From Leptonemataceae bacterium (GTDB lineage: Bacteria > Spirochaetota > Leptospiria > Leptospirales > Leptonemataceae), in contig OZ245742.1 in assembly GCA_965227295.1 (NCBI GenBank), forward strand, positions 5,024,001 to 5,088,000: a stretch of 64,000 nt of DNA. The letters are read 5' to 3'. Both the position numbers and the translations under genes were made by a program. Under the pieces are notes generated by a model. The model worked only from the letters and a program-made list of their open reading frames with translations. It ran no database searches and had not been told where the DNA came from. Shown here piece after piece: positions 6,399 to 9,639 of this stretch. The number at the start of each line of letters is the position of its first letter. The first letter of the stretch is position 1.

Positions 6399-6579
6399 AT
6401 CTCCGGTTCACATTCCACACAGAGCCGCAGCTCCCGCCCGCCTCAAAAATCGCGCCGCCCCGCTGCGATCGGCGGCAGCGCGTTAGAATCGGCGCCGCCC
6501 TCGCGCCGCGTCCCGCAAAATTCGCCGCCGCCCGCGCGGCTCGCCCGCGTCCTCGGCGGAAGAGGTGCTCTGTTCTCTT
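6399..6579 (+). repeat. 181-bp inverted repeat, left boundary of the long IS1595-family element
   Basis: Reverse complement of 9453..9633 with one mismatch; begins ATCTCCGGTTCACATTCCACAC. Confidence 0.9.
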
Positions 6580-6718
6580 TTAACCATCGGCTATGCGCCG
6601 GAACTCCCGCCCCCCGGGACTGAGGTTCGGTCGGTGCTTCAGGGGCCCCGGGGTTACATGTTCAAGGCAGCGCAGCGGGCATGGTTTGCGCCCCGGTTTA
6701 GGTTTTCAGCGCATACTG

Positions 6719-7405
6719 TTAGTCCGCCACGCGGGAGCCACGGTGGTGGTTGTAGCTCCTGCGTTCACCTCGCGCCGCGTCCGTCGTCCAGCAGCGCCGC
6801 ACACAGTCGTTCCAGCCGTCGTTGGCTTCCCGTCGCCGTACCTTAGTCCAGAGTGCCCGCGTTACGAATTCCCATCCGCCGTCACCGGCGGCCTCCGCCG
6901 CATAGCGTCGTTCCAGCTTCGCGCGTAAGCCATCCGAGATCTTGCGGCGGCGGCGCGGCTTCTTCTCCCGTTTGTACATTCGCGCGTGTAGCTCAGCCAA
7001 CTGCTGGTCTACGGCGTGCTTCCACACGAAGCCGTGCCGGTAGGCCAGCTTTACATCGTATTCCGCCGCATTCATTTTCCGCAGACACGTTCGTTCGCAG
7101 CGGGCCCACACTTCCACATTGTCATAGCGCCACAGCCACACCTCTTTCAATCGCATGAGCGTCACGTCCCACGCACTCGCGTTTCGCGGCGGCGCCGGAA
7201 CATCGCGGTGCCGGTAGGCCATCTTGTTGACCGCCGCCACGGCCGCAGCGCCCCAGGTCCGCGGGCGGCGACGCCGCGCGGGTTGATCATCGCCGCGCCG
7301 TCGCTCCGCCGCCCGCCGGCATTGGTAGCGGTTCAACACCGCCGCGTACGCCCGGCGCCGTTTGCGAGCTTCAGCGTCCGCGCTTACGTTTAACTTCATA
7401 TCCAT
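6719..7405 (-). CDS. Basic Arg/Trp-rich hypothetical cargo protein
   Basis: Probable start MDMKLN at 7405, overlapping the upstream gene; recurrent W-x-x-A/hydrophobic helices. Confidence 0.55.
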   Translation of the reverse strand: MDMKLNVSADAEARKRRRAYAAVLNRYQCRRAAERRRGDDQPARRRRPRTWGAAAVAAVNKMAYRHRDVPAPPRNASAWDVTLMRLKEVWLWRYDNVEVWARCERTCLRKMNAAEYDVKLAYRHGFVWKHAVDQQLAELHARMYKREKKPRRRRKISDGLRAKLERRYAAEAAGDGGWEFVTRALWTKVRRREANDGWNDCVRRCWTTDAARGERRSYNHHRGSRVAD

Positions 7406-7688
7406 ATATCTTACCACGGCGCTCCACAATGTCGATCGCAACTTTCACAATCTCCTCTTCCGAAAGATAGCGGGCCATGTGTGCCACTTCTTTCGTGACG
7501 AGGTAGTGGTTCTCGAACTCCGTCCGCCCCGCTTCGCGAAACGGTTCTTTAAGCTCCACTTCCGTATTGTCCGGCGTGAGTTCCCTGCCCGTCAATGCAC
7601 ACTTGTAATCCTGCTCCTCCATCAAACGCCAAAAGTGTGCGGCGAAAAATTTGAGCGATCGTTCTTCTTGCTTTGCTTTAGCCATCAT
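7371..7688 (-). CDS. Degenerate HNH-like protein (transposon cargo)
   Basis: AAGGAG RBS; QDYKCALTGREL...ELKEP..EAGRTEFENHYLV parallels the HNH pattern C..G..L...DHxxP..GG....N..L but lacks the first His. Confidence 0.55.
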   Translation of the reverse strand: MMAKAKQEERSLKFFAAHFWRLMEEQDYKCALTGRELTPDNTEVELKEPFREAGRTEFENHYLVTKEVAHMARYLSEEEIVKVAIDIVERRGKIYGYEVKRKRGR

Positions 7689-9339
7689 CGTTCTCCTTAA
7701 TAGTTGTTGTCATCTTATTAATGAATGCCGCGCGTTCATCCCGGCTGATCTCGTATTTACCACGCGCCACAAACTCCGGCGCGTCCTCGGTTCGCACGCC
7801 CTCATGTTCGTCCGGCTGGTGCGTATACTCTTCCCAATCCCACGAGTAGAGCACGCCGGGGAGCACCGCCACGTTCCGCCGCACCATCGTTTCGACTCCG
7901 CGATTGCGTTTGATCTCCACGACTTCGGCGAGGCCGAGTTGAGCCCAGCGCCGCGCAATGCGAATCAACAGGTGCGACTGTCTTCCAATATCACGCGCAA
8001 TCCTGTTCACCGACTTCAGTTCCGCGCGGCCGAGCTTCTCCCAGAGCTTAAGTGCTTCGGCGTGATACTTACGCTCGTTCGACCGCCGCCACGCGACGCC
8101 CTCCCGCATGAAAGTCAGCCAGTCCAGGTGCGCCTGTTTCGCCGGGAACAGGTCGTTATCTTCGAATAATTCACGCAATTTGCCGCGAATCTGGCCCCGG
8201 GAATTCGCGAGATCGAGTTTCCCGCGCTCCTCGATTCGAGGCGGTTTATAGCGGTTTTGGGCGATTCTGAGGCGGAGAAACCGAGGGTCCCGGGGCAGCG
8301 ACGCCCCCACCGCCGGACGGCTATATCCGGGGTCTACATTCCCCACAAATCCCGTTTTTCTTAAACTTACTATAGTTTTAAGCCCGTAGACGTGGAGCGC
8401 CTTGAGTCCCGAGTATTCGTTCAGGTAGAGTTGGGAGTATTCCGGCGTGAAGTAGCCGTAAGCTGCCAGGAAGGACAACTTAATCATCCGCTGGTTGCCC
8501 TCGGCCACCTGGTTGTGCACGCCGTTCTTGCACCAGCGGTCTCGTGCCCAAACACTTCGTGACTTGTTCTTAGCGCGTGCGGAGTGATTCACGGCACGAT
8601 GATTCCGGTTGTAGCGCGAGAGCCACGGGTAACCGTCATCCGTGAACGTCGGCGCGTGGTTCGGCAAGAACGTCGTCAGCGGTTCAATGCTGCGTTGCGT
8701 CTGGTCGGGAACGCTGTCGAGTAAGACCGCCCCGCCCTTCAGCGCGATCGTATGCGCCAGCGTTCCAATCTGAAACTTGCCGCGCTCAACCGCTACTTTG
8801 TCGCTCAAGTAGATGCTCGCCGTCTGTCCGCCGTGGCGATGGCGGGAACGTCCGCCGTTACTGCGTTGCGTCGCGGAGAAGAGCGCCAGCGTGTCCATGT
8901 GCACCACCGGCCCGGCCTGTAGCTCCCGCGCATCCGCGTCTTCCGGAAGAACCTCATCACCAAAAGTGCTGGAAATCTCGGTATTTACAAGCTCTCGCAC
9001 CGCCGGCAGGAGGTCGGTGAGCATCAACTGTAAACGCCGCTTAAGTAACAGAGAAGTGGACTTAGAGACACCGAGGCGGCGGCGGATCTGCGCGGCCGAA
9101 ATCATCTGCGGGAACGCCTGCACCGCTTCCGTCAACAGATAGCCGAACGTCCACAGCGGGAGCTTCAAATGATGCAACGGCGTTCCCACCGTGCGCGACA
9201 TCTGGTAATGACAGTCGCCGCACCGAATCACCGTTTCACGATTCGCGACCGGCTTGCACAACTCGCCGCCACACTTTTCGCAGGCGCGCGGGTAGACGTG
9301 CGTCAATAGCTCCTGTGTCAGTTCGGTGTAGTACCGCAC
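7678..9339 (-). CDS. IS1595-family (ISXO2-like) DDE transposase with about 215-aa C-terminal extension
   Basis: Zn ribbon CEKC..CGDC, HTH SAAQIRRRLGVS, catalytic VHMDT / FTDDGY / HRAVNHS / NQVAEG. Confidence 0.85.
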   Translation of the reverse strand: MRYYTELTQELLTHVYPRACEKCGGELCKPVANRETVIRCGDCHYQMSRTVGTPLHHLKLPLWTFGYLLTEAVQAFPQMISAAQIRRRLGVSKSTSLLLKRRLQLMLTDLLPAVRELVNTEISSTFGDEVLPEDADARELQAGPVVHMDTLALFSATQRSNGGRSRHRHGGQTASIYLSDKVAVERGKFQIGTLAHTIALKGGAVLLDSVPDQTQRSIEPLTTFLPNHAPTFTDDGYPWLSRYNRNHRAVNHSARAKNKSRSVWARDRWCKNGVHNQVAEGNQRMIKLSFLAAYGYFTPEYSQLYLNEYSGLKALHVYGLKTIVSLRKTGFVGNVDPGYSRPAVGASLPRDPRFLRLRIAQNRYKPPRIEERGKLDLANSRGQIRGKLRELFEDNDLFPAKQAHLDWLTFMREGVAWRRSNERKYHAEALKLWEKLGRAELKSVNRIARDIGRQSHLLIRIARRWAQLGLAEVVEIKRNRGVETMVRRNVAVLPGVLYSWDWEEYTHQPDEHEGVRTEDAPEFVARGKYEISRDERAAFINKMTTTIKENDDG

Positions 9340-9639
9340 GTTAATGTGCGGGAATCGTAAATTAAAGGCGTCCTTGGCCCCGAGGCCAGAAGCAGCACCC
9401 GTTGCTTTCGCGGCCCCGGGGGGCGGGGTTTGGGCGCTCCGCTTCGAATTGGAAGAGAACAGAGCACCTCTTCCGCCGAGGACGCGGGCGAGCCGCGCGG
9501 GCGGCGGCGAATTTTGCGGGACGCGGCGCGAGGGCGGCGCCGATTCTAACGCGCTGCCGCCGATCGCAGCGGGGCGGCGCGATTTTTGAGGCGGGCGGGA
9601 GCTGCGGCCCTGTGTGGAATGTGAACCGGAGATCTAAAA

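Follow-up and report, generated by a model that had tools for sequence, protein, structure and literature searches.

Which DNA moves when a transposase gene, two further genes and a pair of long inverted ends lie together, and do the two further genes belong to the machinery or to its freight? This question is raised by element B, a segment at positions 6399-9633 of a 64,000-nucleotide stretch (the window) of the genome of a Leptonemataceae bacterium (assembly GCA_965227295.1, contig OZ245742.1, positions 5,024,001 to 5,088,000). A preliminary description had presented B as an IS1595-family transposon with a cargo operon, possibly of target-selection or regulatory subunits. In this work, we propose, with a probability of roughly 0.6, that B represents, in minimal form and without cargo, a conserved family of IS1595-superfamily elements from Leptospirales/Spirochaetia, which has three genes and long arms, is targeted to the stop codons of MBOAT (membrane-bound O-acyltransferase) genes and contains a nested short insertion sequence (IS). 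The evidence lies in the anatomy of the element, the conservation and linkage of its three genes, the purifying selection on them, the target duplication of a neighbouring element (A), seven sites at MBOAT stops and the concerted evolution of the arms.

The distal arm of B (6399-6579, + strand) is an inverted copy of the transposase-proximal arm (9453-9633, - strand), which carries the tip ATCTCCGGTTCACATTCCACACAG. Each arm has 181 nt, as the preliminary description had stated, and the two are the same at 180/181 positions (99% complementary), while inward of them the identity collapses abruptly (37/74 aligned positions). A third copy of the arm, 85% alike, forms the right end of element A (10782-10962). 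The subterminal motif GGGCGGCG-N2-4-ATT (bottom strand) occurs nine times in the window, with 0.43 occurrences expected by chance and a count of nine reached in 0/100 shuffles. All copies except one lie within the three arms, three in each arm of B and two in A (8/9), and the spacing within an arm is 33 and 40 nt. The three copies that had been read in the left arm at about 6446, 6486 and 6517 are confirmed at 6448-6460, 6487-6500 and 6519-6533, and those of the proximal arm are at 9499-9513, 9532-9545 and 9572-9584. No site inside the arms was returned by a scan with promoter and terminator consensus sequences.

Between the arms of B there are indeed three overlapping genes, seen as minus-strand open reading frames (ORFs) at 7678-9339, 7371-7688 and 6719-7405/7441. 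A non-coding stretch of about 140 bp (6580-6718) also exists, but it belongs to the interior of the element, where it separates the distal arm from the third gene, instead of preceding the left inverted repeat as had first been described; over its first ~75 bp the arm continues in decayed form. B is not a composite transposon with two IS copies around carried DNA, because its distal arm represents only 181 bp of an end.

Related loci were collected in one scan of species-representative genomes, in which the family of 105-amino-acid (aa) proteins encoded by the middle gene served as bait. The scan returned 25 loci, 19 of them from eight Leptospirales/Spirochaetia genomes and six from Planctomycetota. 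The 105-aa gene directly follows the C-terminal domain of the transposase in 18/19 spirochaete loci, the exception (L009) being cut by a contig end. The third gene was recognized by its profile in 15 of the 19, including six that had taken no part in building the profile; it is split over two frames in L001, the profile had no match in L012, L015 and L019, and a contig end truncates L016. Six of the nine loci that have a proximal end and enough downstream DNA carry long inverted repeats, of 233-387 bp and with 87-100% identity. By sequence comparison, the arms measure 319 bp in L001 (99.7%), 316 bp in L003, 332 bp in L004 (100%), 353 bp in L008 (87%, cut by the contig end), 387 bp in L013 (95.9%) and 233 bp in L014 (94.4%). 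The co-occurrence of three genes and long inverted repeats, which the preliminary description had proposed to look for elsewhere, was therefore found in related spirochaete loci. At ~11855-12026 of L014, the outer distal arm is replaced by DNA encoding what reads as an IS3-family OrfA, and the contig ends there.

Between pairs of elements, the ratio of nonsynonymous to synonymous substitution rates (dN/dS) was 0.03-0.10 for the catalytic part of the transposase, 0.11-0.25 for its C-terminal extension, 0.04-0.11 for the 105-aa gene and 0.11-0.27 for the third gene, which indicates that all three genes are under purifying selection. Within L013 and L014 the arms are 95.9% and 94.4% alike, whereas orthologous arms from the two genomes are only 83% alike; arms of one element thus exchange sequence and evolve in concert. 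The subterminal motif is not kept across genomes, the exact motif having a single, unrelated match in the 25 loci; L013 and L001 have two-copy subterminal repeats of their own and L004 has none.

The neighbour of B, element A (9642-10962, - strand), is a short IS of 1321 bp whose ends, 9642-9665 and 10939-10962, are alike at 21/24 positions. It is flanked by an 8-bp target duplication, CTAAAACT, of which the left copy (9634-9641) is also the whole spacer between A and B and the right copy (10963-10970) is the end of the adjacent MBOAT gene. Although two or more copies of this octamer occurred in 13/100 shuffles, so that the count by itself is not significant, it is found at only two places in the window, 9634 and 10963, exactly at the two tips of A, and the weight rests on these positions. 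A thus has the 8-bp duplication of the IS1595 family and also fits its classic layout of one transposase gene with short inverted repeats, unlike B with its three conserved genes and 181-bp arms. Within the transposase ORF of B, between the residues ..GNVDPG and YS.., an internal left end (8325-8348, + strand) differs by one mismatch from the left end of A, and the B core that it delimits (8325-9633, 1309 bp) is 87% identical to A along A's full length. B is therefore three-ended and nests a short IS, an internal end that the earlier two-ended anatomy had overlooked. The same internal end is found in the long elements of L001-L004, L007 and L016, which with the window makes seven where the scan detects one.

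In the window, the short and the long unit also share a reading frame. The transposase ORF of A (9640-10893) runs through the left end of the element and stops at a TAG formed together with the target. In the minus-strand translation of 9280-11010, MBOAT and the transposases of A and B are in one frame with only three TAG codons between them (asterisks), and the junctions read ..VYFQF* ... GNVDPG*F*ISGSH.... The frame of the B transposase, already open at the first base of the tip, contains no ATG, GTG or TTG before GTG 9339, upstream of which lies the conserved motif AKDAFNLRFPHIN. Head-to-tail short units precede the long element in four related loci (one unit in L002, L003 and L004, four in L007), parted by the same 8-mer, TGTTTTAG in locus orientation, and the order of A and B in the window is the same arrangement. 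Over 1234 bp, the short unit of L002 has 100% identity with the core of the L001 long element, and likewise the short unit of L003 is identical to the L004 core; in both cases the flanks differ. In the arrays of a Leptospirales metagenome-assembled genome (MAG), the spacer likewise ends in an in-frame TAG.

These elements target the final 8 bp of an MBOAT gene, TAG stop included (NGTTTTAG). In the window, the MBOAT gene (10963-12351, - strand; Pfam MBOAT, E 6.3e-27) ends in ..VYFQF* directly before the tip of A. An MBOAT stop abuts the transposase-proximal tip at seven sites (the window, L001, L008, L011, L013, L014 and L016), where the gene ends in TTTATTTTCAGTTTTAG or close variants immediately before the tip, with TGA at two sites; as L013 and L014 are orthologous, these represent six gene contexts. 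In one genome with elements at three MBOAT paralogues, the transposases are 80-83% identical and the MBOATs only 35-42%, indicating that the elements spread among the paralogues and were not duplicated along with them. At the orthologous site of L013 and L014, on the other hand, transposase (92%), MBOAT (92%) and DNA across the boundary (84%) show equal divergence of element and flanks, so that an element can stay in place for a long time.

The long-form transposase of B (7678-9339, - strand) has 553 aa counted from GTG 9339, in a frame open to 9633, and matches PHROG 1076 (E 3.9e-73). It consists of a CxxC..CxxC ribbon, a helix-turn-helix and a DDE core, with D149, D234 and E280..K287 invariant. 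Its assignment to the IS1595 type is supported by 21/25 aligned relatives that match Pfam DDE_Tnp_IS1595 (best E 6.4e-11) and by the invariant DDE residues, even though B itself falls below the cut-off of that model. The Pfam model Zn_Tnp_IS1595 had no match in B up to E 0.1; signs of a zinc ribbon are the invariant second pair of CxxC..CxxC, weak zinc-ribbon matches on A and a match to a PHROG 'FmdB-like' family. Among 8000 candidates scored, 180 proteins were related at E <=1e-3. The long forms (~520-635 aa) are widespread, are 40-61% identical at 93-99% query coverage and include several Leptospira species, and the short forms (~420 aa) end at the internal-end motif. Searches of phage and plasmid collections added no more than a partially matching Leptospira phage record and an L. 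interrogans plasmid with 35% identity.

Beyond the internal end, the long form continues into a conserved C-terminal extension of ~215 aa (7678-8324, - strand) with the motifs KQAHxDYL, RKQxE..YN, RIxRxWAxLG, LPDxLYSxD and KYG. This extension may contain a winged helix, as MarR_2 matched somewhere along the protein in 4/25 transposase members, and a weak match to a MarR-type entry of the PDB (E 0.17) covers profile positions 423-526 of the transposase. NCBIfam gave nothing useful for the element proteins.

The middle gene (7371-7688, - strand) encodes a degenerate HNH protein of 105 aa, in which the catalytic D-H has become E-L, the last N has become A/S and a single Cys is left. Relatives number 29, at 51-93% identity, many of them on contigs equal in length to contigs that carry long transposases, and the proteins of the transposon family have E-L and A/S at the catalytic places and one invariant Cys. 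The relation to HNH proteins is revealed by Planctomycetota relatives, which have the core CALTGRELTP..N in common with the 105-aa family, retain D-H and N..K and match Pfam HNH at E 8e-5 to 8e-4, and by the nearest language-model clusters, which are HNH endonucleases. The earlier reading of an HNH-like protein without the catalytic His is upheld in this way. Since the catalytic His and the Cys4 zinc site of HNH endonucleases are both lacking, the comparison indicates that the 105-aa protein is HNH-derived and catalytically dead. The Planctomycetota proteins (L020-L025) are 220-300 aa long with an active-looking HNH domain at the C-terminus; no transposase was found in these six loci, and L021 and L023, the two scanned for neighbours, have terminase large subunit and primase-polymerase genes nearby, a phage-like context.

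The third gene (6719-7405, - strand) encodes a basic, Trp/Arg-rich, all-helical protein of 228 aa from its ATG, or 240 aa from an upstream TTG (7441). W51, W79, W100, W128, K61 and E104 are invariant in the family alignment. A word-based search returned one relative besides the protein itself and an exhaustive search 14, at 26-36% identity except for P0122 at 82%, the relative already returned by the word-based search; an atlas search gave no usable match.

The two extra genes had been regarded as cargo, a view not borne out by the related loci, where both belong to the conserved core and the true variable cargo of larger relatives occupies another site, between the third gene and the distal arm. 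This site holds TetR, thioesterase and resistance-nodulation-division (RND) pump genes; HEPN with DUF7380/DUF4209; MTaX1 with a C5 methylase; a helicase with an Eco57I-like methylase; arsenic and mercury genes; or a Zeta-toxin-like gene with HEPN/Toprim. B and L008 have no such cargo. A few kb past the core operon there are also a D5-type primase-helicase gene in L011 (12269-14503) and a tyrosine-integrase fragment in L018 (6643-6999), which suggests that some members of the family sit in larger integrative islands. In the window itself, an RND efflux operon at 19387-25383 (- strand), with an AcrB-type pump, a membrane-fusion protein with a heavy-metal-binding domain and an outer-membrane factor, resembles the cargo of the relatives and is not adjacent to B.

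Taken together, these data lead to the following picture. The core operon consists of the extended transposase, the dead HNH-domain protein and the basic Trp-rich helical protein, behind which larger relatives carry metal-resistance, efflux or defence-like genes. The element has three ends: the proximal tip, the internal left end and the distal arm, in which the proximal 181-387 bp return in inverted form. Between proximal tip and internal end lies a short IS of 1.2-1.3 kb that codes for the catalytic part alone and contains no stop codon; it would insert into the last 8 bp of an MBOAT gene with an 8-bp duplication, keeping the stop, and its copies would stack head-to-tail at the same 8-mer. 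For the long arms we envisage the part of a distal end, of a duplicated promoter region or of both, and recombination would keep them alike. The C-terminal extension and the two small proteins may act in target choice or in the control of transposition. Given that the family shows target specificity, a target-selection or regulatory role for the extra proteins, as first imagined, seems reasonable, and linkage, selection and target specificity all agree with the idea that they are functional subunits.

Several results weigh against this reading. The B transposase reaches only E 1.2e-4 and 22.5 bits with DDE_Tnp_IS1595, whose cut-off is 27 bits. Searches of solved structures with the three family profiles gave no significant match, and the AlphaFold2 models were too poor for fold comparison, both for the 105-aa family (predicted local distance difference test, pLDDT, 57.7; predicted template modelling score, pTM, 0.36) and for the 228-aa family (pLDDT 66.8, pTM 0.21). 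The protein cluster of B contains one sequence from one contig, a near-identical second copy not being seen there. The bait confines the sample to loci with a 105-aa gene, which cannot reveal long transposases without that gene, nor short ISs far from long ones. No long distal arm was seen within the available downstream DNA of L002, L007 and L011. Moreover, when the 8 bp outside the two tips were compared, none of the five elements bounded by inverted repeats with both tips available (B, L001, L003, L004 and L013) had a target duplication, and the flank beyond the distal tip is conserved across genomes, with ..GCAT directly before the tip, an in-frame ATG, palindromes, tandem repeats and a DUF6908 gene. 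Given these last two facts, 6399-9633 may not be the moving unit, which could be larger or different, or else tip cleavage may mobilize the short unit alone.

In the window, the conserved distal flank (6291-6398, + strand) includes promoter-like hexamers and a perfect 10-bp palindrome, TGTGGCCACA, at 6312-6321; in the MAG the palindromes are TGTAGCCACA or TGTAGCTACA. ATG 6381 is in frame with the arm, so that MSVSAH continues into ISGSH.. of the arm within an ORF at 6357-6623, and a terminator hairpin lies upstream of the ATG. A homologous flank (MAATARKSVH continuing into IS..) is found in L001-L004, L007 and L013, and also as the N-terminus of 14 of 120 listed transposases. Farther out, a DUF6908-like gene (3213-3740, + strand) is convergent on the element; its product had no direct Pfam match and is 31-35% identical by tblastn to the DUF6908 proteins in the flanks of L001-L004 and L007 (E 2e-8 to 2e-11). 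Tandem 12-13-bp repeats lie between this gene and the distal arm at 4112-4173 (5 copies), and repeats of ~12-18 copies lie at the same relative place in the MAG (L004 4550-4703, L007 691-931). Between the tandem repeats and the palindrome/ATG region a complete-looking group II intron is inserted (4307-6290, - strand; Rfam RF02005, E 7e-37), with a reverse transcriptase/maturase at 4407-5720 (Pfam RVT_1 and GIIM), domains 1-4 at 6013-6254, domains 5-6 at 4307-4381 (RF00029, 33.9 bits against a cut-off of 40, E 6e-4) and a 5' GTGCGCC read from the sequence at 6290. In related loci the DUF6908 gene belongs to a flank module with a DprA-like protein, a 110-aa ORF and an SNase-like gene (L001 14195-16279, L002 2949-4851, L003 2374-4854, L004 11708-14371).

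This flank gives substance to the most serious alternative, which we regard as possible although somewhat unlikely: that only the short IS, between tip and internal end, transposes, and that 6399-9633 is an internal part of a larger MBOAT-anchored island reaching at least to the DUF6908/DprA-like module. The arm would then be an inverted duplication of the 5' region of the transposase gene, carrying a promoter and being homogenised, perhaps flipped, by homologous recombination. Besides the missing target duplications and the flank architecture that the window and the MAG have in common, this explanation would accommodate the concerted evolution of the arms and the ShosA-like character of the DprA-like flank gene, whose L013 copy matches this defence protein at E 1e-61. 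In the MAG, moreover, flank and arm together form inverted repeats of at least 2.4 kb with 99-100% identity around 9-13-kb segments between neighbouring elements. Replicative inversion and simple recombination were considered as the origin of these repeats, and no model fitted all junctions. Cargo genes also frequently point inward from the distal arm (all listed genes in L002, L009 and L013), an orientation that would be understandable if the arm acted as a duplicated promoter region. Against a larger island, no far boundary was found in the window: when tip-like sites and CTAAAAC were sought there, the sole extra site (6048) was inside the intron, and beyond the DUF6908-like gene starting at 3213 the window has no genes in common with the related loci. 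The distal flanks are visible in two genomes only. The long elements at three MBOAT paralogues are 80-83% alike, which implies that something carrying the whole operon moved between MBOAT sites.

We are more doubtful about a recombinational on/off switch inside a three-ended, MBOAT-stop-specific transposon. The family transposase gene has neither start nor stop of its own between the ends, and the positions of the ends would set its expression: behind MBOAT or another copy, the transposase follows an in-frame TAG and would be silent or truncated, while the distal flank would supply a promoter-like region, palindromic operators and an ATG whose frame leads into the arm. Exchange between the two arms would invert the operon, so that the full transposase came to lie behind the flank ATG, with the dead HNH protein, the Trp-rich protein and the C-terminal extension providing target recognition. 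All seven MBOAT-adjacent sites have the same orientation and no flipped state was seen. Pfam scans revealed no serine or tyrosine invertase domain in or beside B, so that inversion would need homologous recombination of the long arms.

A fixed, domesticated locus, inherited vertically with MBOAT, immobile and serving the host, for instance in expression control downstream of the acyltransferase, is quite improbable. The similar divergence of element and flanks at the orthologous L013/L014 site, the seemingly single copy of B and a frame that follows the MBOAT and A stops, with no start codon from the tip to GTG 9339, could be understood in this way. Yet even the two elements at that orthologous site carry different cargo (HEPN/DUF4209 in one, a methylase in the other), the similarity among transposases at different MBOAT paralogues far exceeds that among the paralogues, short units that are 100% identical occur at different places, contigs often break at elements and the DDE residues are invariant. 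Finally, a chance composite of an ordinary short IS, captured chromosomal genes and a truncated inverted copy of an IS end would account for a left arm that formally repeats, in inverted form, no more than the outer 181 bp of the right end, that bears the type of flank preceding full short copies elsewhere and that lacks a target duplication, but it is the least credible explanation by far, as the transposase ORF passes the internal end without a break and continues into a C-terminal domain kept in 40-61% identical relatives including Leptospira, the gene order is kept in eight genomes, all genes are under purifying selection, long arms recur in six further elements and related loci differ by 40-55% in protein sequence, which speaks against copies of one recent event; the linkage data largely rule out both an unlinked cargo and a left repeat that is a truncated independent copy, the two outcomes that the preliminary description had named against itself.

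If the family is what we propose, IS1595-type elements, regarded as simple one-gene ISs, would gain conserved accessory proteins including a nuclease-dead HNH domain, as well as a nested short/long design. The stop codon of a multi-copy acyltransferase gene family would be added as a safe-harbour target, and the whole would be a DDE system that is compact and has its specificity for site and orientation built in. Such a family carries metal-resistance, efflux and defence-like genes in spirochaetes, and the 3.2-kb system of the window is small enough for direct testing.

As outlined in the account of PMC8101967, the IS1595 family has an 8-bp target duplication and a single transposase gene with an N-terminal zinc finger and a DDE domain. 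The B family resembles these ISs in its DDE_Tnp_IS1595-type domain and CxxC..CxxC ribbon, A in its 8-bp duplication and the short form in its short inverted repeats. It differs from them by its three conserved genes, the ~215-aa extension of the transposase, arms of 181-387 bp, an internal end within the ORF, a transposase frame without start or stop of its own, insertion behind MBOAT stops and the formation of head-to-tail arrays. A full-text literature search, which did not cover the family-defining paper of 2009, gave no description of such an IS1595 element. Some members of the family reportedly carry passenger genes, a report ascribed to Siguier and co-workers in 2009.

Phage HNH endonucleases encoded beside terminase genes are a further comparison: the 105-aa protein has its core CALTGRELTP..N in common with the Planctomycetota HNH proteins described above, and differs in being small, stand-alone and tied to a transposase, without catalytic His and zinc cysteines. 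For the arms, recombination between the terminal inverted repeats of other ISs is known to cause inversion, according to the part of Ling and Cordaux (2010; PMC3004938) that deals with it. The likeness consists in the long inverted ends, and here the concerted evolution of the arms points to exchange; in contrast to that case, no inverted state was found and the arms are far longer than usual IS ends. Merlin transposons have a related DDE domain, duplications of 8-9 bp and terminal inverted repeats of up to 462 bp, as given in the pertinent section of PMC8101967. Unlike the B family, they are eukaryotic, have a single gene and have no known site specificity of the MBOAT-stop kind.

A parallel in one aspect of behaviour is offered by Tn7-like elements. 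Tn7 inserts in one orientation just 3' of glmS (attTn7), leaves the gene intact, uses extra element-encoded proteins and generates a 5-bp duplication. No homologues of TnsA, TnsB, TnsC or TnsD were found among the three B proteins in Pfam, NCBIfam, PHROG and PADLOC scans. The B family is nevertheless similar in its orientation-specific insertion behind the 3' end of a conserved gene and in its extra proteins, while it departs from Tn7 in having an 8-bp instead of a 5-bp duplication and in addressing the paralogues of a multi-copy family instead of a single-copy gene.

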